A DNA stretch of 64,000 bases, from NCBI GenBank assembly GCA_039934355.1, contig JBDTMI010000014.1, forward strand, positions 9,141 to 73,140, in the 5' to 3' direction. Below the pieces are notes generated by a model that ran no database searches, had not been told where the DNA came from, and saw only the letters and a program-made list of their open reading frames with translations. A program made the translations under genes and the position numbers. This DNA comes from Gemmatimonadales bacterium. Its GTDB lineage: Bacteria; Gemmatimonadota; Gemmatimonadetes; Gemmatimonadales; GWC2-71-9. Of the stretch, positions 27,104 through 56,522 are shown piece after piece; the first letter of the stretch is position 1, and the number at the start of each line of letters is the position of its first letter.

Positions 27104-27367
27104 CTACTTCTTCGGCCGTCCCGGCGGCGTATCGCTGGTGAAGATCACTTTGTTCTTTTCGATGTAGCTCTGCATGTTCGCCGGCACATCCTCTTCGGGA
27201 AAGATGGCGTTCACCGGGCACTCCGGTTCGCAGGCACCGCAGTCAATGCATTCATCCGGGTGGATGTAGAGCATGTCCGCGCCCTCGTAGATGCAGTCCA
27301 CCGGGCACACATCCACACAGGCGCGATCCTTGACGCCGATACAGGCTTCAACGATCACGTAGGTCAT
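27104..27367 (-). CDS. fdxA: 7Fe ([3Fe-4S][4Fe-4S]) ferredoxin
   Basis: [17 protein letters not shown] and [12 protein letters not shown]; AAGGAG RBS. Confidence 0.93.
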
Positions 27368-29559: not shown

Positions 29560-30110
29560 AGACCCAGCACGCCCTTCTTGAACCCCTCACCCGGGCCGGG
29601 CTTCGGCCCGATCCAGCAACGCAGCAGCGCGTCGGCGAAGTCCTTGCCCTGGATGGTGCCTCGATCGGTGCCTGCGATGTCGATCGTCGTCCCCGAGCCC
29701 GGGACGTAGCTGAGCGTCATCCGCTCACCGTTCTTGATATCCAGCATCATCCCGCAGAGCTCAGTGAACTGCTGTTTCAGCTCGGCCGATGCCCCGGGCG
29801 TGTTGTCCTTGAGCCCGTCGTTCCAGGCCCCGCAGATCTTGCCCTTGGTGCCGTGACCCGAGATGAAGTGCATGAGCATCTGCCGCGGCGCGTCGGCGGC
29901 GAGGATCTCATCGGCATTCCCGGACGGCGACGCGACGTACAGTCCCGCGACGTACACCTTGATCACGAATTTCTTGCGGAGTGCGGCGCCGTTGAGGCTC
30001 AGCGTGTGTCCACCGACTTCGATGGTCGCAGGCAGGGCGACTCCGTTGATGGTGCGGGCGGAATCGGCGACTGGAGCACCGGCGAGCAGGGTGGAGAGCA
30101 GGAGCAGCAT
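29556..30110 (-). CDS. periplasmic chalcone-isomerase-like protein
   Basis: LNGAALRKKFVIKVYVAGLY and FADALLRCWIG..P; signal peptide. Confidence 0.85.
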   Translation of the reverse strand: MLLLLSTLLAGAPVADSARTINGVALPATIEVGGHTLSLNGAALRKKFVIKVYVAGLYVASPSGNADEILAADAPRQMLMHFISGHGTKGKICGAWNDGLKDNTPGASAELKQQFTELCGMMLDIKNGERMTLSYVPGSGTTIDIAGTDRGTIQGKDFADALLRCWIGPKPGPGEGFKKGVLGL

Positions 30111-30778
30111 GGGTCGCCTCGGGTTGGGATGACATTGAAAGTGTCGTTCTGTGACCGCGCACGCAACCGGCGCTCCGACGGACCGATCAGGGCAACCATG
30201 CCTGGCAACAGCCTGATACTGGCCCCCGCCGGGATCTGGACCAGCAGATCGCGTCCGGTCGGAGTCAGCGCTGGGTAGTTGCGGCCGACATCAGCGAGCA
30301 TGGTCGCGAGAAACGCCTCCGGGACGGGGATACCCGAAACAGTGGCTCCGCGCAGCCGGAAGCGGGCGACCTCGGGACCGGCAGTGAGGAGTTCGATCTG
30401 CGCCTCGAGTTGCGTTTCCGGGGGGAGAATCATGACGAGTCCGGCGAGGGCCCGTCGCGCGTCGGGCGGCAGATCTGCGATCCGGCCTCCGATCCGCAGC
30501 AGCGTTGAATCCACCGTCACCCGGAAGCCAAAATCCGGGGGGAGCGCACGTGCGCCGAGCCGGGCCATCAGGTATGCGGCAAAGTCGCCGCCGTCGACTC
30601 TCGCGTTCGGCAGTTGCCGATCGACAAAGACCGAATCCACCAGCGCGGATGCCCGGAACACTCCGGCGGGAGTGATCTCGCGGGCACTGGTGTCCGATTG
30701 TCCCGCCAGCGGGATCGGGAGACCCCACAGCAGGCACAGGCAGGCCAGCAGGAGCATGCCGGCTTTCGCCCAGCGCAC
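29999..30778 (-). CDS. hypothetical secreted protein (possibly LmeA/DUF2993-like)
   Basis: Signal peptide and alternating beta pattern. GTG 30778 is preceded by CAATAT. The 3' end overlaps the next gene by 112 nt, so the end is uncertain. Confidence 0.55.
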   Translation of the reverse strand: MRWAKAGMLLLACLCLLWGLPIPLAGQSDTSAREITPAGVFRASALVDSVFVDRQLPNARVDGGDFAAYLMARLGARALPPDFGFRVTVDSTLLRIGGRIADLPPDARRALAGLVMILPPETQLEAQIELLTAGPEVARFRLRGATVSGIPVPEAFLATMLADVGRNYPALTPTGRDLLVQIPAGASIRLLPGMVALIGPSERRLRARSQNDTFNVIPTRGDPCCSCSPPCSPVLQSPIPPAPSTESPCLRPSKSVDTR

Positions 30779-30842
30779 ACGGCCCCATATTGGTGCCATC
30801 CCACCCACCGCAGCTGCGACGTCCCGTTCCGCCGGAGGGGTC

Positions 30843-31046
30843 ATGGAATGGTCGATCATCGGACTGAATATCCTGTATGCCGTCATCGGTGTCGTGCTCA
30901 TGTATGTCGCGTACCGGGTGATCGACTGGCTGACTCCTGAGGTCAATTTCGCCGAGGAGTTGCGACGGGGAAATGTTGCGGTGGGCATTTTTGTCGCGGC
31001 CATCTTTCTGTCGATCGCCATCATCATTGCCGGAGCTCTGAATTGA
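30843..31046 (+). CDS. DUF350 membrane protein
   Basis: GGAGG RBS; two TM helices with DWLTP...EELRRGNVAVG. Confidence 0.85.
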   Translation: MEWSIIGLNILYAVIGVVLMYVAYRVIDWLTPEVNFAEELRRGNVAVGIFVAAIFLSIAIIIAGALN

Positions 31047-31735
31047 GCTCGAGCGCAGCGAGGGGGTTCCCCAGGTCGTCGTCGCTCCCCGCCCGCCTGC
31101 TGGGCGGAGCCCGGCCTCACCTGTACGCGGTGCTGCACTCCCTGCTTCTCCTGACCGTGGCATCACCCCTCTGGTCACAGGCGAATACCAGTCGCTTCGA
31201 CGACACCTTTCAGAAGTACAGCAAGCGGTATTTTGGCGTCGGGTATGACTGGCGCACGTTCAAGGCCCAGGCGATCACCGAGAGCAACCTCGACCCGAAC
31301 GCCAGGAGCTGGGTGGGTGCCCGCGGCATCATGCAGCTGATGCCCTCCACCTTCGCGGAAATTCAGACCAAGAACAGCGCCTTCCAATCGGTAGATGATC
31401 AGGAATGGAATATCGCCGCGGGGATTTACTACGACCGGAGGCTCTGGCGCCTCTGGCGCGACTCCGTCGACCAGACCGACCACGATCGCTTCATGTTTGC
31501 AAGTTACAACGCGGGGCGGGTGCCGCTGCTCCGGGCGCAGACCCTTGCCCGTTTACGGGCGCTGGATCCACGCCTGTGGGGCAGCGTTGCGGCGGTGGCG
31601 TCGGAGGTGCCACGATGGCGGCATGCGGAGACGTTGACCTACGTGCAGCGTATCGGCGCAAATCTGCAGCGGATGGATCCGCGCGGTCGGGTACTGCCGA
31701 GCCCACCCGCCGATTCTGCTACAATAATCCGCTGA
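31043..31735 (+). CDS. lytic transglycosylase (SLT, MltF-like catalytic domain)
   Basis: QAITES, GARGIMQLMP, ASYNAG, ETLTYV. Start position uncertain. Confidence 0.85.
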   Translation: MSSSAARGFPRSSSLPARLLGGARPHLYAVLHSLLLLTVASPLWSQANTSRFDDTFQKYSKRYFGVGYDWRTFKAQAITESNLDPNARSWVGARGIMQLMPSTFAEIQTKNSAFQSVDDQEWNIAAGIYYDRRLWRLWRDSVDQTDHDRFMFASYNAGRVPLLRAQTLARLRALDPRLWGSVAAVASEVPRWRHAETLTYVQRIGANLQRMDPRGRVLPSPPADSATIIR

Positions 31736-32291
31736 GTGGAGTCGCGTAGCTGGCGCTCCTCACTTCCGGCTCGCCGTACCGCCCCTCGTGCGCGTGCTGC
31801 CGGGACCACTCCTCGCGCACACAGAACGAATCCAGTCCGTGGGGCCGGTCGACCGAAAGGACCCCATCGAGGTGATCGATTTCGTGCTGGAGCAGCTCCG
31901 CCCGGTCGCCTTCCAGTTCAACCGTGTGTGACTCCCCCTTCTGGTCCTCATAGCGCACCTTGATCCGGTACGCTCGCGAGACCCGCACCAGCAGGGTGGG
32001 CGAGGAAAAACAGTCGTCCCAGACCGTGAAGTCTTCGTTCCCGACGTCCACGATTTCGGGATTGATTAGAGCCCAGGGCTTGTCCATTTCCACGTAGACA
32101 ATGCGGACCGGCGCCCCAATTTGGGGCGCCGCGATCGCCCGGCCGTAGCCGAAGCGGGACTGGAAGTCACGCAGGGTCTCCCGCAAATCGTCGATGATAA
32201 CCCGGACGGCGGTCGACCCTGGCTTCGATATCGGTTCACATTGGGCGCGCAGTACCGGGTCGCCCAGCATGCGGATCCGATGAATGGTCAC
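31719..32291 (-). CDS. def: peptide deformylase (divergent motifs)
   Basis: GDPVLR, AAPQIG, LINPEI, DDCFS, QHEIDHLDG. GTG 32291 has a GAGGAG RBS. Confidence 0.85.
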   Translation of the reverse strand: MTIHRIRMLGDPVLRAQCEPISKPGSTAVRVIIDDLRETLRDFQSRFGYGRAIAAPQIGAPVRIVYVEMDKPWALINPEIVDVGNEDFTVWDDCFSSPTLLVRVSRAYRIKVRYEDQKGESHTVELEGDRAELLQHEIDHLDGVLSVDRPHGLDSFCVREEWSRQHAHEGRYGEPEVRSASYATPLSGLL

Positions 32292-32523
32292 GGCGGTGGC
32301 TCCTCGAGAAATTCCCCTCCCAATCTTGCGTCGGATCCTCTGACCCACAATAGCCCCTCCTGAGCCAGCCCCCGTCAGTCGATCTTCGGTCGATTTTCCG
32401 GGTCAGATTTAGGAGTTGCTTATACAACTATTATATGTACTGCCCAGAGTGCTGCAACGACCGTAGGCCATCGTATGCCGCTGTCGAACCCGCAATCTGC
32501 TCATGAATATTGAGTTAACCATT

Positions 32524-32575
32524 AATACCAAGAGTTTGGTGTTTAGTTGACAAATCCCGATAAGGGAGGTAGGAT
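32524..32575 (+). promoter_or_regulatory. sigma70-type suf promoter with adjacent inverted repeat
   Basis: TTGACA (32547-32552), 17-nt spacer, TAGGAT (32570-32575). AATACCAA-gagt-TTGGTGTT at 32524-32543. Confidence 0.75.
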
Positions 32576-32585
32576 CTGCCCCTCT

Positions 32586-33304
32586 ATGAGTGCACCGGTG
32601 ATCGCTCCCATCGACGAACAGCTGCTTCCCTCCGCCTACAAAGGAACAAGGGGCGCCGTGCTTGTCGCGCTCAAGCGGGCAGGGGCGCTCAGCAGCCGGT
32701 GCCTCGGGGAGCAGCTCGGGCTCTCCGCCAACGCCGTCCGACACCACCTTCGGGAGCTGGAATCCGAAGGATTGATCGGGTATCGCCGAGAGCGCCGCGG
32801 GGTGGGTGCACCGACATTTGCCTGGCACCTCGAGGCCTCCGGTGAGGCGCTGTTCCCCCAGCGATACAAGGAAGTGCTCACCGAGGTGTTGGATTGCGTG
32901 GCGGCGCTCGCCGGCCGACAGGCGGTGGTCGACGCCATCGAGTCCCGGTTTGTGGAGCTCGCGCGGGGGCTGCGGGCCGAATTGGCGGGCGCTCCGCCGT
33001 CGCGCCGCCGCGAGGTGGTACTCCGCGCACTGGCGGCGGGCGGCTTCATGGCCGAGTGGCAGCCGGAGCTGCAGGGATTCCGGCTGACCGAGCACCATTG
33101 CGCCATCCGCGCGGTGGCGGAGCGCTTCCCGGAAATCTGCGCGGCGGAAGCCCGCTTCCTCCAGGAGGTGCTGGGAGCGGAAGTGGAACGGGAAACCCAC
33201 ATGCTCGACGGGTGTATTGCCTGCGAGTACAAGGTTCACTTTCCCGACGGCGACGAATCGCACGAACGGACCCATCGGGACGCGGCGGTCCCTGAGGAGA
33301 ACCC

Positions 33305-33308
<4 letters not shown>
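32586..33308 (+). CDS. sufR: SufR-like HTH transcriptional regulator
   Basis: Winged HTH ([21 protein letters not shown]), C-terminal HCAI..ICAAE..C motif, and position at the head of the suf operon. Confidence 0.8.
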
Positions 33309-34744
<1,436 letters not shown>

Positions 34745-34758
34745 GGCAGGGCGGCATT

Positions 34759-34783
34759 GTAGGGGCGGCCGTGGTGGTCGTCC
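34759..34783 (+). repeat. REP-like GTAG hairpin between sufB and sufC
   Basis: GTAGGGGCGGCC-gtggt-GGTCGTCC shares GTAGGGGCGG with the element at 23046. Confidence 0.5.
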
Positions 34784-34804
34784 GTTCCCAGAGGAGAATC
34801 GCAC

Positions 34805-35560
34805 GTGCTCGAGATCAAGGACCTCCACGCGAAGGCGGGAGAGAAGCAGATCCTGAACGGGATCACCCTCAGCGTGAAGCCTGGTGAGGTTCATGCCATC
34901 ATGGGCCCCAACGGTTCCGGCAAGAGCACCCTCGCCCAGGTGCTGGCGGGCCATCCGGCCTACGCCGTCACCGGCGGGTCTGCCACGTACATGGGCAAGG
35001 ACCTGCTGGACATGGAACCGGAGGAACGGGCGCGGGCCGGTCTCTTCCTTGCGTTTCAGTATCCGGTGGAGATTCCGGGCGTCTCGAACGCCTACTTTCT
35101 CCGTGCCGCCTACAACGAGATCCGGAAGGCGCGGGGCGAAGAGGAAATCGATCCCATCGACTTTCTCGACCTGGTCGAGGAAAAGCTGAAGCTGGTCGAG
35201 TGGGGACCGGAAATCCTGTCGCGCGCCGTCAACTTCGGATTTTCCGGTGGCGAGAAGAAGCGCAATGAGATCCTGCAGATGGCGGTGCTTGCGCCACGGC
35301 TGGCGATTCTTGACGAAACCGACTCGGGTCTCGATATCGATGCCCTGCGCATCGTGGCGGGGGGCGTCAACAAGCTGCGCCGTCCGGACAACGCCACGAT
35401 CGTAGTGACGCACTATCAGCGTCTGCTCAACTACATCGTGCCGGACGTGGTGCACGTCCTGGCCAACGGGCGGATCGTCCGATCCGGGGGAAAAGAGCTC
35501 GCCCTCGAACTCGAGGCAAAGGGCTATGAGTGGCTGACAGAGGCGACGGTGGGCGCGTGA
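34805..35560 (+). CDS. sufC: Fe-S cluster assembly ATPase SufC
   Basis: [37 protein letters not shown]. Confidence 0.97.
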
Positions 35561-36867
35561 GCACCGCGTACCTGCAGGATCACGAGACCCTCCAGCAGCA
35601 TGACGGCAGCACGGCGCCGTGGCTGCAGGGTCTCCGCGCCACGGCGCTCGAGCGCTTCCGTACCACCGGCTTCCCGACGACCCGGGACGAGGACTGGCGG
35701 TTCACCAATCTCCAGCCGATCACCAGTCGAGAATTCCCGCTCGCCGCCGGTGACTCGGTCGATCTCGCCGCAGGCGTTCTGGAGCCGTTTCTCTACGATA
35801 TCCCCGGTGCGAGCACGCTGGTATTCCTTAATGGACGGTTCCTGCCCGCCCGCTCGACGCTGGCCTCGTTGCCCGCCGGCGTCACGATCCGGAATCTCGC
35901 CACCGCGCTCGGCACCGAATCGGCCCGGCTCGATGGCGAGCTCGGCCGGTACGCCCGGATCGAGCAGAATGGCTTCACCGCGCTCAACACCGCACTGGCC
36001 GGCGACGGCCTGTACCTGCACGTCGCACGCGACGTCGAGGTTGCAGCACCGATCCACGTGGTGTTCGCCACCGACAGCCGCGGGCGCGACGCCGCGAGCT
36101 ATCCTCGCAACTTCATCCGCCTGGAGCGCGGCAGCCGGGCCGCAGTCATCGAGAGCTACATCGGGCTGGTCGACGATTCCTACCTCACCAATGCCGTCAC
36201 CGAAGCGGTGGTCGAGGAGGGCGCACAGTTCGAGCATACCCGGATACAGCGGGAGAGCGAGAAGGCTTTCCATATAGGCACCACGCACCTGCACCAGGGC
36301 AGGGACAGCCGGGTGCTGTCCTATGCGGTGACTCTGGGAGGTCTCGTCGCCCGCAACACGATCGACATGGTGCTGGATGGTCCAGGCAGCCACGGTCAGA
36401 TGCTCGGCTTTTACTACGGGCGCGGTCAGCAGGAGATCGGGAATCACACCTCGATCCTGCACTCGCACCCCAACTGCGACACCCGGGAGATCTACAAGGG
36501 AATCCTGGACGACAAATCCCATGGAATCTTCAACGGAAAAATCTACGTCACGCCCGACGCCCAGAAGACCGACGCCAAGCAGACCAATCGGGCGCTGCTG
36601 CTCTCCGATCAGGCACGGATCAACACCAAGCCGCAGCTCGAGATCTTTGCCGACGACGTGAAGTGCACCCACGGCGCCACCGTCGGGGCGCTCGATGACG
36701 TCGCGGCCTTCTACCTCAAGAGCCGGGGGATCGGACCGGTCCTGGGGCGGAAGATTCTGACCTACGCGTTCGCCGCCGAAGTCCTGGAAGAGCTGCCGTA
36801 CGCCGCCATCCGCGAATCTCTCGAAGCCGTGGTCATGGCCCGGCTCGCCGGACTTGCCTCGCGCTGA
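35557..36867 (+). CDS. sufD: Fe-S cluster assembly protein SufD
   Basis: [24 protein letters not shown]; GTGA overlap with sufC. Confidence 0.95.
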
Positions 36868-36874
36868 TCCCGCC

Positions 36875-38140
36875 ATGACCACCTCGCTCACCGATCACGC
36901 CCCGGCCCGGACCCAGCCTCCGGTATTCGACGTGGCGCGGGCGCGACGGGACTTCCCGGTCCTGCAGGAACGAATCAACGGACGAGCGCTGGCCTATCTC
37001 GACAACGGGGCCAGCAGCCAGCGACCCCGCGCCGTGGTGGAGGCGGAGGCCGACTATGCGCTGCGCGAGCATGCCAACGTGCACCGCGGTGTGCACACCC
37101 TCAGCCAGCGGGCGACGACGCGGTACGACGCGGTGCGTGAATCCCTGCGCGCGTTCCTGAATGCGCCGGTGGCGGACGAGGTGATCTTCACCGCTGGAAC
37201 GACCGCGGGTCTCAATCTCGTCGCGTCCAGCTATGGACGAAGCACGCTCCAGCCGGGCGACGAGATTCTCCTCACCGAGATGGAGCATCACTCCAACATC
37301 GTGCCCTGGCAACTCACCGCCCAGGCCACGGGCGCGGTCATCCGGGTCATCCCCGTCACCGAAGCCGGCATCCTTGACCTCGGCGCGCTGGATCACCTGC
37401 TCAACACCCGGACCCGCATCGTCGCGCTGACGCACGTCTCCAACGTGCTCGGCACGGTCAATCCAGTGCGACGAATTGCGGATCGGGCCCATGCCGCGGG
37501 TGCGGCAGTTGTGGTCGATGGTGCACAGGCGACCGCGCATCTTCGGATCGACGTCCAGGCGCTCGGCTGCGATTTCTACGTCGCCTCAGCGCACAAGATG
37601 TATGGTCCCACCGGCGTCGGTTTCGTCTGGGGTCGTCAGGCTCTCCTCGACGCGATGCCGCCCTGGCAGGGTGGCGGAGGAATGATTCAGTCGGTCACGT
37701 TTGAGGAGACCACCTACGCGCCCGTCCCAGACCGTTTTGAGGCCGGCACGCCCCCGATCGCCCAGGTGATGGGGTTCGGTGCGGCGCTGGAGTATCTCAC
37801 GGGACTGGATCGCGCGCTGGTTGACGCGCACGAGGCGGATCTGCTGCTCTACGCCACGGAGCAACTCTTACGGTTGCCGGGGGTGCGCGTGTTTGGCGCG
37901 ACCGCCGAGCGGGTGAGTGTGGTGTCGTTCGTGCTCGACGGCATTCATCCCCATGACCTCGGGACGGTGCTCGACCTGCATGGCGTCGCCGTGAGGGCCA
38001 GCCACCACTGCGCCCAGCCACTCATGCGGCGCCTGGGTGTCCCGGGGACGGTCCGGGCGTCGTTCGCCCTCTACAACACCCGCGCTGAGGTCGATGCGTT
38101 GGTCGAGGGGCTGGTCGAGGCCCGAAAGGTGTTCAGCTGA
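36875..38140 (+). CDS. sufS: cysteine desulfurase SufS
   Basis: YLDNGA, EHHSN, SAHKMYGP, RASHHCA (group II catalytic Cys). Confidence 0.95.
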   Translation: MTTSLTDHAPARTQPPVFDVARARRDFPVLQERINGRALAYLDNGASSQRPRAVVEAEADYALREHANVHRGVHTLSQRATTRYDAVRESLRAFLNAPVADEVIFTAGTTAGLNLVASSYGRSTLQPGDEILLTEMEHHSNIVPWQLTAQATGAVIRVIPVTEAGILDLGALDHLLNTRTRIVALTHVSNVLGTVNPVRRIADRAHAAGAAVVVDGAQATAHLRIDVQALGCDFYVASAHKMYGPTGVGFVWGRQALLDAMPPWQGGGGMIQSVTFEETTYAPVPDRFEAGTPPIAQVMGFGAALEYLTGLDRALVDAHEADLLLYATEQLLRLPGVRVFGATAERVSVVSFVLDGIHPHDLGTVLDLHGVAVRASHHCAQPLMRRLGVPGTVRASFALYNTRAEVDALVEGLVEARKVFS

Positions 38141-38586
38141 TGTCCGAGGCGAATGAGCTCTACCAGAGTCTGATCCTCGATCACAACCGGTCGCCCCGGA
38201 ATTTTCGCGTCCTGGAACATGCCAATCGCTGCGCCGAGGGATACAACCCGCTCTGCGGCGACCAGTTCACATTCTGGCTCAAGCTGGATGGTGATCGGAT
38301 CACCGACGTCTCCTTCCAGGGTTCCGGGTGCGCCATCTCAAAGGCGTCGGCCTCGCTCATGACGACGGCGGTCAAGGGCAAGACGGTGGAGGAGGTCGAG
38401 CGGATGTTTGGCAGTTTTCACCGGATGGTAACGGGGCAGGGTGGGCCGGATGCCGATCTTCCCCCGAAGCTGGCGGTATTTGCCGGCGTACGGGAGTTCC
38501 CCGCCCGAGTGAAGTGTGCGAGCCTTTCCTGGCACGCGCTCAAGAGTGCCATTGATGGTGAAGCGAAGGAACCAGTGTCAGCGTGA
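38140..38586 (+). CDS. sufU: SUF system NifU-family protein SufU
   Basis: NPLCGD, GCAIS, ARVKCA. Confidence 0.93.
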   Translation: MSEANELYQSLILDHNRSPRNFRVLEHANRCAEGYNPLCGDQFTFWLKLDGDRITDVSFQGSGCAISKASASLMTTAVKGKTVEEVERMFGSFHRMVTGQGGPDADLPPKLAVFAGVREFPARVKCASLSWHALKSAIDGEAKEPVSA

Positions 38587-38661
38587 GACGGGCGGGACAA
38601 TCCCGTCGCGCCGCCCGCGCAATCTGTGCTGGTACACGAATACTCATGGAGTTGCCCGACA

Positions 38662-39093
38662 ATGCCCTACGATCCCCGAATGGTTCAGCCGATGCGCGAG
38701 GAAATGGTCCGCATGGGCGTACGTGAGCTTCCGACCGTCCCCGACGTCGATGCGGCAATGAGCGATAGCCAGGGCACAACCCTCGTGTTCGTCAATTCCG
38801 TCTGCGGCTGCGCCGCGGGAACCGCGCGCCCCGGATTGTCGCTTGCGCTGAAGCACGGGACCCGACCGCGAAACATCGTGACCGTCTTCGCCGGGCAGGA
38901 TCTCGATGCCACCGCACGAGCCCGGCAATTTTTCAGCGACTACGCGCCGAGCAGCCCCTCGATGGCGCTGCTGCGCGACGGCGAGGTCGTGCACTTCGTT
39001 CACCGGCACATGATTGAGGGCCGTTCCCCGCAGCAGATCGCGGCGGATCTCACGGCAGCCTTCGATCAATATTGCACTCCCTCTACGGTATGA
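38662..39093 (+). CDS. BrxA/BrxB family bacilliredoxin
   Basis: NSVCGCAAG.ARP, TVFAGQD, PSSPS, RHMIEGR. Confidence 0.9.
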   Translation: MPYDPRMVQPMREEMVRMGVRELPTVPDVDAAMSDSQGTTLVFVNSVCGCAAGTARPGLSLALKHGTRPRNIVTVFAGQDLDATARARQFFSDYAPSSPSMALLRDGEVVHFVHRHMIEGRSPQQIAADLTAAFDQYCTPSTV

Positions 39094-39437
39094 GCGCCGC
39101 CCAGTCACACGACCACGACACCCCGGCGCACGAGACCGGTCCCCACGGCACCGGTCACGTCTTTCACCCCGGTCATTCGGAGCTTCACGGCATCACGGTT
39201 GTCGTGGAGCTCGGGACGGGTGAGCTCTACGTCGGGCGCTACCACGAGGAAACCCCGGCCGGATTGTTACTGCACGACGCCGCCCAGTTCACACCCGGCG
39301 CCTCCGCCACCACCTCCGCGGAGTTTGTGGCGCGAATGCTCAAATTCGGGGTGCGGACGGACCACCAACACGTCGTCGTGCCGGGGGCAGCGGTGCGTCG
39401 CGTGACCCGTCTGGTCGAGTGGAGCGGGGGACAGTAG
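39090..39437 (+). CDS. His-rich hypothetical protein, possible Sm-like fold
   Basis: ATGA overlap with the brx gene; 8 His in the first 33 aa; VVVELGTGELYVGR...LLLHDA...VVVPGAAVRRV. Confidence 0.75.
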   Translation: MSAAQSHDHDTPAHETGPHGTGHVFHPGHSELHGITVVVELGTGELYVGRYHEETPAGLLLHDAAQFTPGASATTSAEFVARMLKFGVRTDHQHVVVPGAAVRRVTRLVEWSGGQ

Positions 39438-39473
39438 GCGGTCAGGTCGCTCCCAGCCCCTTTCCGCCTGACC

Positions 39474-39689
39474 TCAGGGCCAGATCTGTTCCCCGTCGGA
39501 AGCGATGAGCGTGATTGCGTCGACGGGGCAGGCCCGGGCGGCATCCAGAATCCGCTTGTCCTTGGCTCCCTCAGGGTCGATCACCACACAGAAATCCTCA
39601 TCGTCCAGCTCGAACACCTCGGGCGCCATCGACACGCATTCCGCGTTGCTTGCGCACAGTTCTCGATTGACGCTGATCTTGTATGGCAT
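39474..39689 (-). CDS. small [3Fe-4S]-type ferredoxin
   Basis: CASNAEC...APEVF...ACPVDAI (CxxNxxC...CP). Confidence 0.88.
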   Translation of the reverse strand: MPYKISVNRELCASNAECVSMAPEVFELDDEDFCVVIDPEGAKDKRILDAARACPVDAITLIASDGEQIWP

Positions 39690-39885
39690 AGGCGCCTATA
39701 ATAGGGGTCTCCCGTTCGCACGCCAGAGTCTCCCGGAGACTGCTGCGGTCAGCCCTGCCCGCCTGGCGGGACTCCCCTCAGTACCGGGCGCACCTGGTCG
39801 GGACAGTTCGTTGTCGTCCGGGTCGAAACAGCACCCGCGCCCCCGGCGTACAGCCGCCCACGCCAAGCCACCCTCCGGAGCCTAG

Positions 39886-40839
39886 ATGACTACACCAGTC
39901 GTTGTAGCCGATCACATTACCAAGCGGTATGCCGGGCATACCGCAGTTCGGGCGCTGTCGCTGCAGGTGTCCCGCGGAGGAATTTTCGGCTTGCTTGGAC
40001 CCAACGGGGCGGGTAAGACGACGACGATCCGAATGCTCCTCGGTATCATCACCCCCGATGAGGGCAACGTCACGCTGCTCGGTCAGGTCGGAACTGGTCG
40101 GGATCTTTCCGCGCGCATCGGGTACCTCCCGGAAGAGCGGGGTCTCTACCCCAAGATGCGGGTGCTGGACCAGCTCGCGTTCCTCGGCGAAGCCAAGGGG
40201 CTCGGCCGGTGGGATGCCCGGAAGCGGGCCGGAGTCTGGCTGGAGCGGCTGGGGTTGGGCGACTGGGCACTCAAGAAGGTGTCGGATCTCTCCAAGGGGA
40301 TGCAGCAGAAGGTCCAGTTCGCCGGTGCTCTTCAACATGATCCTGAACTGGTCATCCTGGATGAGCCGTTCAGCGGGCTCGATCCGGTCAACAGTCAAGT
40401 CATGCGCGATGTCGTGGTGGATGTCGCCCGAAGCGGCCGGACGGTGCTGTTCTCCACCCACATCATGGAGCACGCCGAAAAGATGTGCGATCATGTGGTG
40501 ATCATCGCACGGGGGGAGAAGGTGGTCGACGGGACGATGGCGGAAGTCAAGCGCGAAGGTGGGAAAACCCATGTCGCCCTCACCTTTACACGGAATGCGC
40601 AGGCGGCCAGGGGTATCCTCGCGGATCGTTCCCTCGTGGCGACGGTCGACGATGCCGGAGCGACGGCGGAGGTCGGGCTGGTTCCCGGTGCGGATCCCGA
40701 ACGGTTGCTGAAGGCGCTGGTCATGCAGGACGTCGGGCTGTCACGGTTCGAGGTGGTGGAGCCTTCGCTCCAGTCGATCTTCATTGCCAAGGTCGGACCC
40801 GAGGCCGCCCACCCCGTGGCCCGATCGGAGGTCGCATGA
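39886..40839 (+). CDS. ABC-2 type ATP-binding protein (YhaQ/NatA-like)
   Basis: GPNGAGKTT, GYLPEERGLY, LSKGMQQK, LDEPFSGLDP. Confidence 0.92.
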   Translation: MTTPVVVADHITKRYAGHTAVRALSLQVSRGGIFGLLGPNGAGKTTTIRMLLGIITPDEGNVTLLGQVGTGRDLSARIGYLPEERGLYPKMRVLDQLAFLGEAKGLGRWDARKRAGVWLERLGLGDWALKKVSDLSKGMQQKVQFAGALQHDPELVILDEPFSGLDPVNSQVMRDVVVDVARSGRTVLFSTHIMEHAEKMCDHVVIIARGEKVVDGTMAEVKREGGKTHVALTFTRNAQAARGILADRSLVATVDDAGATAEVGLVPGADPERLLKALVMQDVGLSRFEVVEPSLQSIFIAKVGPEAAHPVARSEVA

Positions 40840-42131
40840 ACAAGATCATCGCGGTCATCCGGCGGGAGTTCATCGAACGGGTCCGGACCAAGGCATTCAT
40901 CATCGGTACCGTGCTTGTCCCGGTGCTTTGGATCGGGTTCGGACTTCTTCCGCGTCTTCTCCTGGAGCGCGAGACCGGTGCGCAGCGTCTGGTGGTCCTG
41001 GACCGGACCCAGAGCGATGTCGGGGCGAGAATCGCTGCTGCCCTGGAGGCAGTCAAGGCGGGGGAAGGCGACGCGACCCAGTTTGCCGTCGAGCACATGG
41101 CGGTCGGGTCGGACTGGGAGTCAGTCCGAGATTCGTTGGTGCGACTCACTGGCCTCTCCGAGGCCCCGCCCTCGGCGCCCCACGGCATCCTGATTCTTGA
41201 CGAATTCTCCGTCGATAGCGGCAGAGCTTCATATCTCGGGTCGAATGTCGCGAGCCCCCGGCTCACCAACGCGATCGAGCACGCCATCGAACCTGTCCTC
41301 CTGGCGATCAGGCTAGAGCGGAAGCAGCTCGACTCGAGCGTCGTGGCGGCGGCGATGATCCGGTTGTCGCTCCAGACCACGAGGGTGACCGAAGGTCATG
41401 TGACCGGCCAGAGCGGCGAGCAGACGTTCTTTCTCGCCTATTTCATTGACATGCTCATGTACTTCGCGCTCCTGTTTTACGGCATCCAGGTCAGCAGCGC
41501 CGTCATGGAGGAGAAGACCAACCGCATCGTGGAGATTCTGGTGTCGAGCCTGCGGCCGTTTGAACTCCTGATGGGCAAGGTGATCGGAGTCGGCGCGGCC
41601 GGGCTGATGCAGATGGGGATCTGGCTGGGGACCGGGTTATTCGTGAGCACGATCCTCAGTCGACCCGGCCCCGCAGGCGCGGCCCCGACGGGATTCCAGC
41701 TCCCCGAAGTGTCCCTCGCGCTCGTGGCCATCATTCTGATCTGCTTCCTGCTCGGGTTTTTCTTTTATGCCAGCCTGTACGCCGCCATCGGCTCCATGTG
41801 CAACACCCAGCAGGAAGCTCAGCAGACCGCAACACCGGTCACCATGCTCGTGGTGGCTGGCATGATCCTGATGTTCGGGCTGGTGAATGATCCGAACTCC
41901 ACACTCGCCCGGGTCGTCACCTTCATTCCCTTCTTCACCGCGCTGGTCTTGCCCGTGCGATATGCACTGACACCGCTGCCGCTGCCGGAGGTGCTTGGCG
42001 GTATCCTGGCGCTCCTCCTCGGCATTCTTGGGGTCGTATGGCTCGCGGGCAGGATCTACCGCGTTGGCATTCTGTCGTATGGCAAAAAGCCGTCATTGCG
42101 TGAACTGTGGCGCTGGGTTCGAACAGACTGA
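40836..42131 (+). CDS. ABC-2 type permease (YhaP/NatB-like)
   Basis: IRREF.ERVRTK and EEKTNRIVEILVSS; multiple TM helices; GGAGG RBS with ATGA overlap. Confidence 0.9.
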   Translation: MNKIIAVIRREFIERVRTKAFIIGTVLVPVLWIGFGLLPRLLLERETGAQRLVVLDRTQSDVGARIAAALEAVKAGEGDATQFAVEHMAVGSDWESVRDSLVRLTGLSEAPPSAPHGILILDEFSVDSGRASYLGSNVASPRLTNAIEHAIEPVLLAIRLERKQLDSSVVAAAMIRLSLQTTRVTEGHVTGQSGEQTFFLAYFIDMLMYFALLFYGIQVSSAVMEEKTNRIVEILVSSLRPFELLMGKVIGVGAAGLMQMGIWLGTGLFVSTILSRPGPAGAAPTGFQLPEVSLALVAIILICFLLGFFFYASLYAAIGSMCNTQQEAQQTATPVTMLVVAGMILMFGLVNDPNSTLARVVTFIPFFTALVLPVRYALTPLPLPEVLGGILALLLGILGVVWLAGRIYRVGILSYGKKPSLRELWRWVRTD

Positions 42132-42251: not shown

Positions 42252-44123
42252 ATGGAATGCTATGACGTCGTCGTGATCGGTGGCGGCCACGCCGGAAGCG
42301 AGGCGGCCCGTGCGGCGGCCCGGCTTGGCGCCCGCACGCTCCTCCTGACCCAGAATCTGGAGACCATCGGTCAACTGTCCTGCAACCCGGCGATCGGTGG
42401 GATCGCCAAGGGTACCGTCGTGCGCGAGGTCGACGCGCTCGGGGGGATCATGGGCCGCGCGACTGACCGCGCCATGATCCAGTTCCGAATGCTCAATCGC
42501 TCCAAGGGTCCTGCCGTTCGCTCGCCACGCGCTCAGTGCGATCGCGGACTCTACCGGCGAGCGGTGCGTACGCTGCTCGAACAGGAACCAGGTTTGGATT
42601 TCGCGCAGGGCACGGTCGCCGGTCTTGTCATCCGTGCGGGTAGGGTCGAGGCGGTCGTTACTCGCGAGGGGACTCGCATCGCCACTCGAGCGCTTGTGGT
42701 CACCGCCGGCACGTTTTTGCGAGGCCAGATTCATGTTGGCAGAGATGCAGCGATTCCGGGAGGGCGCGCCGGTGATGCTTCCTCGGTTGAACTCTCACAA
42801 GCTATTGCAGCACAAGGCATTACAGTAGAACGATTCAAGACAGGTACTCCCCCACGCCTGGACGGACGGAGCATCGATCTCGAGCGACTTCCGCGACAGG
42901 ACGGGGACACCGAGCCTTACTGGTTTTCCGTTCACGCGCGTGCGCCTCGCCTTCCCCAACTCCCCTGCTACCTCGCGTGGGCAGGGAGCGAGGTGAAGGC
43001 GATTGTCGAGCGTGAACTGCACCACTCGGCTCTCTATGGGGGCATGATCAGTGGTCGTGGTCCTCGCTACTGCCCTTCGATCGAGGACAAGATCGTCAAG
43101 TTCCGCGAGGCAGAGCGCCACCAGTTATTTCTGGAGCCGGAGGGACTGGAGACGAGCGAGCTCTACCTCAACGGTCTTTCCACCTCTCTCCCTGCAGCCA
43201 CACAACTGGAGCTCGTGCGGGCCGTTCCGGGATTGGAGCGGGCACTCATAACTCGGCCCGGCTACGCCATCGAGTACGATTACTTCCCGCCAACGCAACT
43301 GCTTCCGACGCTCCAACTCAGGGACTGCGCCGGGCTCTACTTCGCCGGACAGGTCAACGGGACGACTGGCTACGAGGAAGCCGCCGCACAGGGGATCATG
43401 GCGGGGATGAATGCCGCGCTCACTGCTTCCGGCCGTGCGGCAGTCGTGCTGCGGCGCGATCAGGCGATGATCGGAGTATTGATCGATGACCTGGTGACAC
43501 GTGGTGTCGACGAGCCGTATCGGCTCTTCACCTCGCGCTCCGAATTTCGACTCCTTCTGCGTCAGGATAATGCGCTCAGGCGCCTGCTGCCGCTGGCTGA
43601 GCAAATCAACCTGCTCGATCAGGCGGAGCTGGAGGCCGGGCGAGAGCGACTATCCCAGGAGGAGCAGGTGCGTCGGGAGGCTGACGATATCACCCTTACG
43701 CCTGAAGATGTTAACGCATTTCTCGAGGCTAGTGATTCGACCCTGATAACGGAGCCGGTCCGGATTTCCGACTTGGCTCGCCGCCCGTCGGTCCCACTCC
43801 GAGGACTGCTTGAGGTCGCTGGTTGGCGAGGTGAACCGGACGCTGCGGAATGGCCGGATATCGAGTTCAAGTACGAAGGCTATCTCAAGCGGGAACAAGC
43901 GGCCGCAGCGCGCTTGGCCGCGCAGGAGGACTTCCTCCTTCCGATCGAGCTACCGGTCATGTCCTTTCAGACCATCTCAAATGAGGCCCGCGAAAAGCTC
44001 CTGGCTCGGCGGCCGCCCACGATTGCGAGCGCAGGTCGCATCCCCGGAATCTCACCCAGCGACCTCCAGAATCTTGTCCGTGAGACGCTCAAGTGGAGGG
44101 CCGGGAAGGCCGCTTCGAAATAG
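42252..44123 (+). CDS. mnmG: tRNA U34 carboxymethylaminomethyl modification enzyme MnmG (GidA)
   Basis: GGGHAG, SCNPAIGG, RFKTGTPPR, GPRYCPSIEDK, GQVNGTTGYEEAAAQG, EPYRLFTSRSE. Confidence 0.97.
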   Translation: MECYDVVVIGGGHAGSEAARAAARLGARTLLLTQNLETIGQLSCNPAIGGIAKGTVVREVDALGGIMGRATDRAMIQFRMLNRSKGPAVRSPRAQCDRGLYRRAVRTLLEQEPGLDFAQGTVAGLVIRAGRVEAVVTREGTRIATRALVVTAGTFLRGQIHVGRDAAIPGGRAGDASSVELSQAIAAQGITVERFKTGTPPRLDGRSIDLERLPRQDGDTEPYWFSVHARAPRLPQLPCYLAWAGSEVKAIVERELHHSALYGGMISGRGPRYCPSIEDKIVKFREAERHQLFLEPEGLETSELYLNGLSTSLPAATQLELVRAVPGLERALITRPGYAIEYDYFPPTQLLPTLQLRDCAGLYFAGQVNGTTGYEEAAAQGIMAGMNAALTASGRAAVVLRRDQAMIGVLIDDLVTRGVDEPYRLFTSRSEFRLLLRQDNALRRLLPLAEQINLLDQAELEAGRERLSQEEQVRREADDITLTPEDVNAFLEASDSTLITEPVRISDLARRPSVPLRGLLEVAGWRGEPDAAEWPDIEFKYEGYLKREQAAAARLAAQEDFLLPIELPVMSFQTISNEAREKLLARRPPTIASAGRIPGISPSDLQNLVRETLKWRAGKAASK

Positions 44124-44152
44124 CTTACGGCCCTTCTGCGGTGCCATGAGGG

Positions 44153-44168
44153 TGTTTCACGTGAAACA
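44153..44168. promoter_or_regulatory. parS centromere site (perfect palindrome)
   Basis: TGTTTCACGTGAAACA matches the bacterial parS consensus and lies upstream of parAB. Confidence 0.93.
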
Positions 44169-44210
44169 CCTCCGCCAAGGAACCACGTTTCAGCACCGCC
44201 TCGCGCCCGC

Positions 44211-44226
44211 TGTTGCACGTGAAACA
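44211..44226. promoter_or_regulatory. parS site (second copy)
   Basis: TGTTGCACGTGAAACA differs from the first site at one base. Confidence 0.85.
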
Positions 44227-44360
44227 CCCCCAATTGTCGACTCGCCATTTCGCCGCTGGGCCTGCAAAGCTATATTCAAACGTTTCGAACTTTGGTGCAA
44301 TACCGATGGATAATAACCAAGTTCTAATATTGTAAGTCACACAACAACAAAGACTTATAA

Positions 44361-45170
44361 ATGGCTAGAATCATCGCCATCGCGAATCAGAAGGGTGGCG
44401 TCGGCAAGACCACGACGGCGGTGAATCTTGCGGCCTCTCTGGCGATCGCGGAGCGGAAGACCCTGCTGGTGGACGCCGATCCGCAGGGCAATGCGACGAG
44501 CGGGGTTGGAGTTCGACGCGACCAGGTGCGCCTTTCGCTCTACGATGTGATGATCGATGGCCGTCCGGTCCACGATGTATTGCTGAACGATCCCAATCTT
44601 CCCTTCCTTGACGTCCTCCCCGCAACCCAGGACCTCGTCGGGGCTGAACTGGAGTTAGTCGAGCGTCGCGATCGAGAGCACGCCCTCGCACGTGCCCTTG
44701 AGCCGGCGCGCGCGACGCACGAATACATTCTCGTGGATTGTCCGCCGTCCCTCGGCCTCATCACATTGAATGTGCTCGCGGCGGCCGATGGCGTGATCAT
44801 CCCGATTCAGTGCGAGTACTACGCACTCGAGGGGATCTCTCAGCTCCTCAACACCGTCAAGCTGGTGCAGCAGAATTTCAACCCCCGTCTCGCGATCGAC
44901 GGCGTGCTGCTGACGATGTACGACTCTCGGGTGAATCTCTGCCGGCAGGTCGCCGCAGACGCCAAGGAATATTTCGGTGCCCGAATGTTCCCGACCGTCA
45001 TTCCCCGGAACGTCCGGCTCGCCGAGGCGCCGAGCTACGGCAAACCGATCCTGCTGTATGACATTCAATCCGTCGGAGCGAAGAGCTATCTGGCCGTCGC
45101 GCAGGAACTCGTGCGGCGAGCGGAAGCGCACACCACGGAGGAGTCCGCACTCCCTGAGGTGACCCAATGA
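44361..45170 (+). CDS. parA: chromosome partitioning ATPase ParA/Soj
   Basis: NQKGGVGKTT, DPQGNAT, DCPPSLG, QCEYYALEG, PRNVRLAEAPS. Confidence 0.96.
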   Translation: MARIIAIANQKGGVGKTTTAVNLAASLAIAERKTLLVDADPQGNATSGVGVRRDQVRLSLYDVMIDGRPVHDVLLNDPNLPFLDVLPATQDLVGAELELVERRDREHALARALEPARATHEYILVDCPPSLGLITLNVLAAADGVIIPIQCEYYALEGISQLLNTVKLVQQNFNPRLAIDGVLLTMYDSRVNLCRQVAADAKEYFGARMFPTVIPRNVRLAEAPSYGKPILLYDIQSVGAKSYLAVAQELVRRAEAHTTEESALPEVTQ

Positions 45171-46036
45171 GTGAATCCAAGCGACTGGGGCGTGGGCTGG
45201 AAGCGCTGCTCGGCCCCGTCTCGCGTCGGGACGCCGATGCGGGTGGGTCGCTTCAGGAGCTCCCGGTTTCAGCGATCCGGCCCAATCCGTACCAGCCGCG
45301 CGCTCGAATTGACGAGCCGCAGTTCCAGGAACTGGTAGCGTCCCTCGAATCCGCCGGCTTGCTCCAGCCGATTGTCGTCCGACGCCACCTCGACGGCTAC
45401 CAATTGATCGCAGGGGAGCGCCGCTGGCGCGCGGCGCAGAGGCTCGGGTGGGAGAAAATCCCCGCCGTCATCAAGGAGGCCGACGACCGAACCCTCCTCA
45501 CCCTCGCGCTGGTCGAGAACCTCCAGCGCGACAATCTGTCGGCGATCGAGGAGGCTACCAGTTACCAGCGGCTTATCGACGAGTTTCACGTCTCGCAGAC
45601 CGAGGTGGCGCGACTGGTCGGACGGGACCGTTCAACGGTGGCGAATGCGCTGCGTCTCCTGAAGCTGCCCTCAGAGGTCACCGTCATGGTGGATGACGGT
45701 CGCCTCTCCGAAGGGCATGCGCGTGCCCTCCTCGGGCTGGGCGACCGGACTCAAATTCTGCGGCTGGCGCAGGATGCGGCAACGCAAGGCTGGTCGGTGC
45801 GAGACCTGGAGGTCAAGGTGCGCGGCGCGCGGCCCGCTACGGCACGGCGCCCCGCCGTGCGACAGCAGGCGCCAGAGCACCGTCGCGTCGAGGATGCCCT
45901 GCGCAAGCGACTTGGCACCGACGTGCGCGTCACGGCCCGCCGTCGCGGGCGAGGGATGCTTGCGATCAGCTACTACTCCGAAGACGACTTGTCCCGGGTG
46001 CTCGATATGATCCTGGGCGAACCGTTCGGGGGGTGA
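45167..46036 (+). CDS. parB: chromosome partitioning protein ParB/Spo0J
   Basis: LGRGLEAL, NPYQPR, IAGERRWRA, ENLQR, HTH with RSTVAN.LRL. Confidence 0.96.
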   Translation: MSESKRLGRGLEALLGPVSRRDADAGGSLQELPVSAIRPNPYQPRARIDEPQFQELVASLESAGLLQPIVVRRHLDGYQLIAGERRWRAAQRLGWEKIPAVIKEADDRTLLTLALVENLQRDNLSAIEEATSYQRLIDEFHVSQTEVARLVGRDRSTVANALRLLKLPSEVTVMVDDGRLSEGHARALLGLGDRTQILRLAQDAATQGWSVRDLEVKVRGARPATARRPAVRQQAPEHRRVEDALRKRLGTDVRVTARRRGRGMLAISYYSEDDLSRVLDMILGEPFGG

Positions 46037-47382: not shown

Positions 47383-48360
47383 GTGAAACTGTTTGTAACC
47401 ATACCATGTGCGCTCGGCCTCCTGGTCCTCGCCGGTTGCGGCAACAAACCGACCGCTGCGGTTGGTTTCCGGGCGGGGCTTGTCACGCCCGGCTCGATCG
47501 CGGACGCAGCCTGGAACTCGGGGGCATATAAAGGACTGGAGCAGATCCGGGATTCGTTGCACGTCCTGGTGAGTCAAGTCGAAGCGCGTACCCCGGCCGA
47601 ACAGGAAGAAGCGCTCCGCACATATGCCGCGCAGGGGTATGAGCTCGTCTTCGGGCACGGCTTCGAATTCCAGGGGGCGGCGGAGCGAGTCTCGGCCCAA
47701 TACCCCAAGACCGTATTCGTCGTCACCAGCGGCGAACGAGTTCAGGGTAACGTGTCGCCCCTCATCTTCCGGCTCCATGAAGCGAGCTATCTCGCCGGGA
47801 TGGTGGCCGGCGGGATGACGAAAACCAACACCATCGGATTCGTGGGCGGAATCGAACTCCCGCCGATCAAGGAGGCCGAAGCCGCCTGGGTTGCCGGGGC
47901 ACGTGCCGTCAATCCAAAGGTCACATCGCGCTCCACCTACCTCAACACCTTTGACGACGTGGCAGCCGGCAGGGAGGCGGCGATTGCGCTGCTGCAGGCT
48001 GGCGTGGACATGTTCCATCACAACGCCGATCAGGCGGCACTGGGAGTGTTTCAGGCTGTGAAGGAGTCGCCCTCGGCGTTCATCCTGGGCGCGAATCTCG
48101 ATCAGACGGCCCTGGCTCCAAGCCGGGTCCTTGGTTCAGCGATCATCGACCTGCCCCGCGCCTTCCTCGCGATCGCGCGAGAGGTGAAGTCCGGCAACTT
48201 CCAGCCGAGAGTCGAATCGTTTGGATTGAAGAGCGGGGTAATCCGGTATGAATCGAATCCGGCGCTCGAGTCAACCCTGCCCGAGGCGCTGCGGCAACGG
48301 GTCAACGAGGCGCGAGACTCGATCAGCGCCGCAGATCCGGGCCCGCCTGCAGCTCCGTGA
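47383..48360 (+). CDS. BMP family ABC substrate-binding lipoprotein (nucleoside type)
   Basis: Lipobox LAGC; D.AWN..AY.G, GHGFEF, EASYLAG, IGFVGG. Confidence 0.9.
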   Translation: MKLFVTIPCALGLLVLAGCGNKPTAAVGFRAGLVTPGSIADAAWNSGAYKGLEQIRDSLHVLVSQVEARTPAEQEEALRTYAAQGYELVFGHGFEFQGAAERVSAQYPKTVFVVTSGERVQGNVSPLIFRLHEASYLAGMVAGGMTKTNTIGFVGGIELPPIKEAEAAWVAGARAVNPKVTSRSTYLNTFDDVAAGREAAIALLQAGVDMFHHNADQAALGVFQAVKESPSAFILGANLDQTALAPSRVLGSAIIDLPRAFLAIAREVKSGNFQPRVESFGLKSGVIRYESNPALESTLPEALRQRVNEARDSISAADPGPPAAP

Positions 48361-49163: not shown

Positions 49164-49206
49164 CCGAGCCCCGGCCGGACTACCGCCGTCACGGCCGCCC
49201 TCCCCG

Positions 49207-51737: not shown

Positions 51738-51738
51738 C

Positions 51739-56263: not shown

Positions 56264-56522
56264 TCAATATTCTCCTGCGCCATCGGGCAAACCGCAGCAC
56301 ATCGCTGACCGACGGAAGCGTGCGCTCCTCCCCGTAGGCGGTGTGGAGCCGCCAGGCCAGGTACTCGGAGTCCGGCCGGGGAAGGAAGGGCGGGATGTGC
56401 CACCAGTGGCGCCGGCGGAATGCCCACAGCATCGTCAGCAGGTCCCACGCGACGAGGGGATTGAGGATGGCATGCCCCGTCAGGCGCGCCAGCAGCCCTG
56501 CCCACCCGCTCGTTTCGTCCAT
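56256..56522 (-). CDS. small hypothetical protein (88 aa)
   Basis: WW..PPFLPRPD..YLAWRL.TAYG motif; overlaps the ndh start; TATCTT 7 nt upstream. Confidence 0.7.
   Translation of the reverse strand: MDETSGWAGLLARLTGHAILNPLVAWDLLTMLWAFRRRHWWHIPPFLPRPDSEYLAWRLHTAYGEERTLPSVSDVLRFARWRRRILSV

Follow-up and report, generated by a model that had tools for sequence, protein, structure and literature searches.

We analyzed a 64,000-nucleotide stretch of DNA from a Gemmatimonadales bacterium (NCBI GenBank assembly GCA_039934355.1, contig JBDTMI010000014.1, positions 9,141 to 73,140 of the forward strand), referred to below as the window, and within it a small gene, here called X, that is the last gene of an operon for iron-sulfur (Fe-S) cluster assembly of the SUF type. 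The gene order is sufR-sufB-sufC-sufD-sufS-sufU-brx-X, and all of these genes lie on the + strand. The first gene (32547..33308) encodes a SufR-like winged-helix (helix-turn-helix) regulator, with a TIGR02702 match of E 3.2e-30 that scores 105 bits, short of the cut-off of 178.8. The scaffold genes sufB (33305-34744), sufC (34805-35560) and sufD (35530-36867) occupy 33305..36867 and match SUFBD_core and ABC_tran. They are followed by the cysteine desulfurase gene sufS (36854..38140; PF00266, E 5.4e-143) and by sufU (38140..38586; PF01592, E 5.3e-22), which encodes a sulfur transfer protein of the NifU_N type. A single-cluster ferredoxin gene in convergent orientation lies 3' of X (39474..39689, - strand; Fer4_13, E 1.8e-11) and ends the operon.

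The gene directly upstream of X, brx (38662..39093), encodes a bacilliredoxin of the BrxA/B family: the protein matches PF06491 (E 1.6e-58), scores 199.9 bits against TIGR04191 (cut-off 100) and carries the CGC motif, whose residues C48-G49-C50 are invariant in 56 sequences. In an alignment of suf-linked bacilliredoxins, H114, R115 and H116 are also invariant and Cys138 is nearly so; Cys138 sits right at the boundary with X, five residues short of the C-terminus.

X encodes 115 residues and occupies 39090..39437 (+ strand, stop codon included); it begins with an ATG at 39090 and ends with a TAG at 39435-39437. This ATG shares bases with the TGA stop of brx (39091-39093), in the sequence ATGA. 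An alternative in-frame TTG start was listed at 39072; the nearest relatives begin with MSAA or MSPA, so the ATG at 39090 fits as the start. The protein has no Cys and 12 His (residues 7, 9, 14, 19, 23, 26, 29, 33, 52, 62, 92 and 94), eight of them in residues 1-33 (binomial P ~5e-7 against the His background of 2.2% measured on nine proteins of the window). The G+C content at third codon positions (GC3) of the X frame is 0.82, and that of the window as a whole is 66%. Three parts can be distinguished: a His/Asp-rich N-terminal extension (residues 1-21, 39090..39152) that contains H7, H9, H14 and H19; a signature motif, VFHPGHSELHG (residues 24-34, 39159..39191), that holds H26, H29 and H33; and a predicted Sm-like barrel (residues 35-107, 39192..39410). 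X matched no family in Pfam (E ≤ 0.1) or NCBIfam (E ≤ 1), and its relatives, where the sources name them, are called only "hypothetical protein". These results bear out an earlier reading of the sequence alone (the original prediction), which had described an uncharacterised 115-residue open reading frame (ORF) at these coordinates, coupled by ATGA to the bacilliredoxin gene at the end of the suf operon, with eight His in its first 33 residues. A scan of 32200-39900 for promoter and terminator consensus sequences gave no excess over shuffled sequence.

An AlphaFold2 model of X was built from an alignment of 43 sequences. The mean predicted local distance difference test score (pLDDT) was 81.9, with values of 90-96 over residues 31-110 and of about 50 over residues 1-30. 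The model consists of five strands (b1, 36-41; b2, 46-55; b3, 58-67; b4, 92-97; b5, 102-107), an inserted helix (76-86) and a C-terminal helix (108-114). With this model as the query, Foldseek found 46 PDB matches at E ≤ 1e-3; those among the listed top 50 were Sm, LSm or SmAP proteins without exception. The matches listed had E values of 2e-4 to 1e-3, target-normalised template modelling (TM) scores of 0.5-0.73 and identities of 10-22%; examples are Sulfolobus SmAP (5mkl), Archaeoglobus Sm1 (1i4k), 4xq3, 1loj and spliceosomal Sm proteins. Over this model and that of a fused relative described below, the best matches, Pyrococcus abyssi Sm (1h64) among them, reached target-normalised TM scores of 0.6-0.73. 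The strongly bent five-stranded antiparallel beta-barrel of the Sm fold is therefore predicted for X, and the prediction was reproduced with a 39%-identical homolog. The stretches that the original prediction had compared to Sm1 and Sm2 correspond to b1-b3 and b4-b5 of the model, in the topology of Sm, LSm, SmAP and Hfq proteins, and the long linker noted between them corresponds to the insertion that carries helix 76-86. A monomer model with a Foldseek comparison had been proposed there as a check, with a fold other than Sm-like as the refuting outcome; the predicted fold is Sm-like.

The relationship to Sm proteins was found in the predicted structure and not in sequence profiles. No Sm, LSm or Hfq profile matched X significantly. 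PF01423 was found in none of 46 family members at E ≤ 10 and SM-ATX in two of 46 (best E 0.055). A profile search of the PDB also gave no significant match, the best being eIF6 (E 0.053); the LSm domain of Edc3 (E 0.92) and SmAP (E 1.7) were further non-significant echoes. A Pfam scan of each member at E ≤ 10 gave only chance-level scatter, such as Lipocalin_8 in five of 46. In the ESM Atlas, X was close only to unnamed clusters from Gemmatimonadota and Planctomycetota; the named neighbours, LSM (0.84) and a phage Hfq (0.78), were both under the lead threshold. Sm proteins bind RNA through an Asp/Asn in the b2-b3 loop and an Arg-Gly in the b4-b5 loop. These residues are absent from X, as had been noted from the sequence: the corresponding turns are T55-P56-A57-G58 and P98-G99-A100-A101, and of these residues G58 and P98 alone are conserved, in Gemmatimonadales and not beyond. 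Sm proteins also have an N-terminal alpha-helix before b1. In X no such helix is modelled, residues 1-30 being low-confidence coil, and the model of a fused relative described below lacks it likewise. X differs further from the Sm, LSm, SmAP and Hfq proteins in having a 24-residue b3-b4 insertion with a helix, a C-terminal helix, a conserved His motif that precedes b1, and a genomic and fusion context of Fe-S biogenesis and not of RNA. We conclude that X represents an undescribed family of about 95 residues with a predicted Sm-like small beta-barrel.

A word-indexed search of 5.8 billion proteins gave 285 relatives of X at E ≤ 1e-3 among 302 candidates, and a HMMER search of 1.84 billion cluster representatives gave 72 clusters (50% identity) at the same threshold; the named sources put the relatives in Gemmatimonadota. 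When one genome per species was scanned, 247 species genomes were found to encode a relative, and the best 80 loci of these genomes were used for all locus counts below. The labels of 78 of the 80 are Gemmatimonadota, Gemmatimonadales, Gemmatimonadaceae or Gemmatimonas, and the remaining two are Actinomycetota and Chloroflexota. One locus, L068, places the gene in the genus Gemmatimonas. These two, L057 (CAWHNI010000007.1) and L074 (DASXTD010000412.1), are from metagenome-assembled genomes (MAGs) and contain the full sufS-sufU-brx-X arrangement. The layout of L057 is nearly the same as that of L058, whose source is a MAG of Gemmatimonadales and resembles that of L057 in isolate name; this suggests mis-binned contigs over transfer. 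On codon alignments of 56 loci, the median ratio of nonsynonymous to synonymous substitution rates (dN/dS) was 0.31 for X (288 of 300 sampled pairs usable) compared to 0.20 for brx (294 of 300), with dS near saturation. This shows that X is under purifying selection. X is a real gene.

The neighbourhood of X was compared by tblastn with the window proteins, and for each gene only the loci with enough flanking sequence were counted. A survey for linkage to sufU and brx had been suggested with the original prediction, and the linkage was found throughout: brx lies directly upstream of X in 80/80 loci, and SufU was present upstream of brx in 79/79. SufS was present in 78/78, SufD in 71/71, SufC in 68/70 and SufB in 68/69 loci, and the SufR-like regulator in 50/68. 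Downstream of X, an ABC transporter was found in 57/71 loci and a convergent ferredoxin within 400 nt in 45/76; the convergent ferredoxin is not a constant partner of X. The genes on the 3' side of X vary, and X therefore travels with suf-brx and not with them.

The junction between brx and X was examined in the 68 loci with automatically assigned boundaries for both ORFs. In 27 of them the start of X and the brx stop overlap, by four bases in 13 and by one base in 14, and in 59 the two are no more than 20 nt apart. Automatic calling flagged 12 loci without a start or complete ORF and three with an implausible start, and in L014, L029, L044, L055 and L056 Brx or X is cut or partial. When 17 loci, 13 of the 15 flagged ones among them, were re-read, 16 had a start of the form M/V/L-SGHVFHPGH just 3' of brx; the other, L071, had been read in the wrong frame. 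These loci show X to be transcriptionally, and usually translationally, coupled to brx at the 3' end of suf in every locus examined. By its strand, its coupling and its conserved position, X is a component of the SUF operon.

Some distant relatives of X are longer and carry an A-type Fe-S carrier as their C-terminal part; in these carriers, which belong to Planctomycetota, X forms the N-terminal module. P0192 (230 residues, MEI6231823.1) is from a Planctomycetota MAG and is labelled "iron-sulfur cluster assembly accessory protein"; P0194 (231 residues) was found on 35 contigs. Their ErpA/IscA/SufA-like carrier domains match PF01521 (E 7e-17 and 1.8e-16) and score 109 and 107 bits against TIGR00049 (cut-off 58.8). 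When the X domain of P0192 served as the query, 255 proteins of 126-403 residues were obtained at E ≤ 1e-3, and PF01521 was present in 114 of the 120 listed among them. The three Cys of the carrier are invariant in 46 aligned fusions. An hhalign comparison of the free Gemmatimonadales X with the fused domain gave a probability of 99.7% (E 9e-27) over 95 columns ungapped. For the fusion proteins, the names given by NCBIfam and in the source annotations refer to the carrier domain only.

In the model of the fusion, both domains were confident and the Pro/Ala-rich linker between them was disordered (residues 100-120, pLDDT ~41). Foldseek with the fusion model ranked IscA/SufA proteins first, as matches of the C-terminal domain (E 7e-8 to 5e-6); the N-terminal domain matched Sm proteins (Pyrococcus abyssi Sm, E 1.8e-4, TM 0.73). 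The fusions independently confirm the Sm-like fold predicted for X and its Fe-S connection. X itself is not an A-type carrier, as it contains no Cys and does not match PF01521. When the carrier domains of P0192 and P0194 were used as tblastn queries (E ≤ 1e-3), none was found in the 80 loci (about 8 kb around X) or in the window.

Apparent fusions of Brx to X were also considered. A search with the wide alignment returned a single protein of 332-2000 residues, P0191 (364 residues), which reads as Brx, out-of-frame text, X and unrelated text. P0191 and three further candidates, P0188, P0133 and P0280, were rejected as true Brx-X fusions and taken for frameshift or read-through gene calls, which indicate adjacency only. 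P0280 gives this adjacency to brx for an X with Cys at position 51, a residue discussed below.

To describe conservation, three alignments were compared: Gemmatimonadales sequences (56), the wide family (46) and the carrier fusions (46). Invariant in the 56 Gemmatimonadales sequences are V24, F25, H26, P27, G28, H29, L32, H33, G34, T36, V37, G49, R50, G58, F86, G87 and P98. H33 is present in all sequences of the three alignments (56/56, 46/46 and 46/46; 148/148 overall), and H26 in 56/56, 43/46 and 45/46, respectively. In the same order, R50 is conserved in 56/56, 45/46 and 45/46, D63 in 55/56, 35/46 and 45/46, and H67 in 42/56, 34/46 and 46/46. At position 51, Gemmatimonadales sequences have Tyr, Phe or Trp, and 19/46 sequences of the wide family and 45/46 fusions have Cys. 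At the level of sequence, the signature of the family is F-H-x6-L-H-G (H26 and H33), usually together with H67.

Most relatives have 90-99 residues and start with M-S-G-H-V-F-H-P-G-H, which corresponds to residue 21 of the window X. The His/Asp-rich extension of 21-23 residues was found only in the window X, L001 and L002 (3/56 of the Gemmatimonadales alignment) and in P0002-P0008. It holds four to seven His, and its composition is kept while its sequence varies. Since the extension is confined to one subclade, the His-rich tail is a clade-specific addition and not a hallmark of the family. The description of X as a His-rich protein is thus correct for the His count of the window protein and does not extend to the family, because residues 1-21 are specific to the subclade. 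All members with the extension have Phe or Trp at position 67, where most relatives have His, and the tail may compensate for the ligand lost at this position. His67 is also missing in some members without the tail.

The constant linkage to suf and brx and the fusions to A-type carriers point to X as a dedicated accessory protein of Fe-S biogenesis, a reading to which we assign a probability of about 0.8. Of the two roles that the original prediction had offered, an accessory factor or a regulator of Fe-S assembly, the first is favored by this suf linkage and these fusions; the second found no support, as there is no Sm or Hfq profile match and the RNA-binding loops are not conserved. The X family would be a case of an RNA-binding fold put to use in the biogenesis of Fe-S clusters. 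Like SufA, SufE, SufT/DUF59, Nfu and the frataxin-like Fra/CyaY proteins, X is a small protein outside the SufBCD/SufS core whose gene lies in or near suf, and it did not match the SufE, SufT/DUF59, Nfu or frataxin-like models of Pfam (E ≤ 0.1) and NCBIfam (E ≤ 1).

As for how X may act as such an accessory protein, the conserved residues suggest a His-based adaptor that hands on metal or clusters together with Brx and the carriers; we give this more specific proposal an even chance. X would act late, in the hand-off from the SufBCD scaffold to carriers or targets. Fe or a [2Fe-2S] cluster would be bound transiently by H26 and H33, usually together with H67. In Gemmatimonadales, H29, H52 and H62 could add to this putative site, as could Cys51 in the carrier fusions. 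The partner would provide the thiols: in Brx these would be those of the CGC motif, perhaps joined by bacillithiol, and in the fusions those of the carrier Cys residues. The role of X would then resemble that of the His-donating BolA proteins for monothiol glutaredoxins, or of glutaredoxins for A-type carriers, and the His/Asp-rich tail in the subclade of the window could be an added arm for metal capture.

Several observations weigh against this interpretation. The 80 loci are nearly all from one order, and the perfect synteny therefore partly reflects common descent. With a disordered linker and a predicted TM score (pTM) of 0.45 for the fusion model, a fixed contact between X and the carrier is not predicted. 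The window X has neither a Cys nor H67, position 67 being Phe (39288-39290). H29, H52 and H62 are specific to Gemmatimonadales and are not conserved beyond them, and residues 24-30, with the signature motif, belong to the stretch that was modelled with low confidence.

A stronger version of the hand-off proposal draws on analogy with BolA. In it, Brx and X would be the bacillithiol-world counterpart of the glutaredoxin-BolA pair, bridging a [2Fe-2S] cluster or Fe(II) and passing it to A-type carriers; we regard this version as speculative and rather improbable. The cluster or iron would be held between the CGC motif of Brx, possibly with bacillithiol, and the His motif of X, and in Planctomycetota both steps would be fused into one polypeptide. 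BolA has an alpha/beta fold, unlike X, which matched no BolA model of Pfam or NCBIfam, and the likeness is one of function only. The BolA partners (BolA, YrbA/IbaG, Fra2/Bol2 and BOLA1/3) are small proteins with a fold of nucleic-acid-binding type and a conserved His, and they share with X a thiol partner of the thioredoxin fold and a place in feeding the traffic to A-type carriers, according to PMC7538681, PMC7730481 and PMC11327457. Heterodimers of BolA and monothiol glutaredoxins bridge a [2Fe-2S] cluster, and in a BolA-like protein two conserved His bind divalent metals (PMC7538681); a plant glutaredoxin supplies clusters to ISCA (PMC7730481). A review of bacillithiol asks whether an Fe-S center on bacillithiol-containing Brx exists and takes part in iron or Fe-S trafficking (PMC5790435). 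The partner of X differs from that of BolA in being a CGC bacilliredoxin and not a CGFS glutaredoxin, and the bridging of a cluster by Brx and X is hypothetical.

The same residues could serve a metallochaperone or donor of iron (or zinc), which would take up mononuclear Fe(II) at its His-rich site and tail, supply it to SufBCD, SufU (a Zn protein) or a carrier, and not ligate a formed cluster. The conservation of H26, H33 and H67 with the acidic D63 and D65 is compatible with such a protein, as is the tail, which keeps its composition and not its sequence in the manner of metal-binding tails. The iron source of SUF is called unidentified in the part of PMC5790435 consulted, and the suf linkage and the carrier fusion also fit an iron donor. 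The His-rich tail, however, is missing from most family members, and for Cys51 in 45/46 fusions and the tight pairing with a dithiol redoxin, a chemistry of clusters or thiols is no worse an explanation. We consider a pure metallochaperone unlikely.

It is also conceivable, though in our view doubtful, that X binds no metal and is a protein-protein adaptor like the LSm domains of Edc3 and ataxin-2, bringing Brx or a carrier to the SUF scaffold or to client apoproteins. In that case the conserved His would have a place in an interface or in the structure. The flexible linker to the carriers, with its pLDDT of about 41 over residues 100-120 and the pTM of 0.45, resembles those of targeting domains; the N-terminal motif, unstructured in the monomer model, resembles segments that fold on a partner; and the echoes in profile searches, both non-significant, are of protein-binding LSm domains (Edc3 and SM-ATX, at the E values given above). 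An invariant His, with a Cys in the fusions, would nevertheless be unusual for a pure interface, and the gain of a His-rich tail in one clade suggests metal chemistry.

That X is an Sm/Hfq-like RNA-binding protein, a post-transcriptional regulator of suf or of iron-responsive mRNAs, appears highly improbable. The predicted fold and the nearest named ESM Atlas neighbours, LSM and phage Hfq below the lead threshold, are what such a regulator would lead one to expect, but no Sm, LSm or Hfq profile matched significantly, the turns at the RNA-binding positions of the Sm fold read TPAG and PGAA (with Pro98 alone conserved in the latter), fusion to an Fe-S carrier offers no rationale for an RNA chaperone, and Rfam matched no RNA family in 30000-42000. 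The view that X is a chance frame encoding no protein, which might be raised because GC-rich DNA is prone to long spurious ORFs and 79 ORFs were listed in 13 kb, including an antisense ORF of 101 residues at 39239-39544, is effectively refuted by relatives in 247 species genomes, the dN/dS, the GC3, the confident fold and the presence of the X domain in frame inside more than 100 carrier proteins.

Small beta-barrels are known elsewhere in metal-centre assembly or iron transport, as in HypC/HupF and FeoA, and HypC has a conserved ligand residue at its extreme N-terminus, before the barrel. The position of this ligand resembles that of the M-G-T-F-H or M-S-G-H-V-F-H-P-G-H start of X relatives. 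HypC and FeoA differ from X in ligands and pathway, and neither showed a match to X by sequence or among the listed Foldseek matches. A precedent for a carrier with a second domain is NfuA, in which a degenerate A-type domain is fused to an Nfu domain (PMC2682760). NfuA and the X fusions share the combination of a carrier domain with a second small module thought to aid targeting or hand-off. In the X fusions, however, the added module is Sm-like and N-terminal and the A-type domain keeps its three Cys, and X also occurs as a stand-alone protein beside brx.

In full-text literature outside subscription journals, the X family was not found to be described, and a search for Sm-like proteins together with Fe-S or suf gave one match, on Hfq in Salmonella. 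In the part of PMC2682760 consulted, the A-type carriers with extra domains are only NfuA-like, and A-type carriers in general are near-absent from bacteria of the Planctomycetes-Verrucomicrobia-Chlamydiae group in the genomes of 2009; a term look-up in PMC7144353 gave no mention of fusion, Planctomycetes or Gemmatimonadetes in the text covered. X combines a known fold with a known pathway, and the family and the pairing are undescribed. X adds a family outside the coverage of Pfam and NCBIfam. Cluster exit from SufBCD, the iron source and the part of low-molecular-weight thiols are unsettled in SUF, and the locus yields a testable set of three proteins, Brx, X and the carrier. If the stronger, BolA-like version of the hand-off proposal is true, bacilliredoxins would take part directly in Fe-S trafficking, and the Sm fold would have a non-RNA, metallocluster function. 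X would also exemplify the recruitment of an Sm-like barrel to metallocofactor biogenesis.

Other genes of the window were also noted. A DUF59/SufT-like protein of 99 residues is encoded about 10 kb upstream of suf (22711-23010, + strand; TIGR02945, E 1.3e-28), with 99.3 bits under the cut-off of 143.4, and a gene for an FdxA-type ferredoxin lies 12 kb upstream (27104-27367, - strand). A second class-V aminotransferase, cysteine-desulfurase-like, is located at 56241-57731 (+ strand); it scores 93 bits with the SufS subfamily model (cut-off 475) and is divergent from a gene of the pyridine nucleotide-disulfide oxidoreductase family (54941-56263, - strand). On the 3' side of an ABC transporter, mnmG (gidA), parA and parB stand in a row (42252-46036), an arrangement often found near the chromosomal replication origin. 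An ABC transporter operon at 47383-52644 (+ strand) matches the "putative B6 ABC transporter" models of NCBIfam below their cut-offs, and a Nif3-like dinuclear-metal-centre gene (48357-49163) is inserted in it after the binding-protein gene. A CopA-like copper P1B ATPase is encoded within 60037-63632 (- strand; TIGR01511, E 1.6e-174), and the protein of 396 residues that follows it ends in a CopZ-like metal-binding domain.

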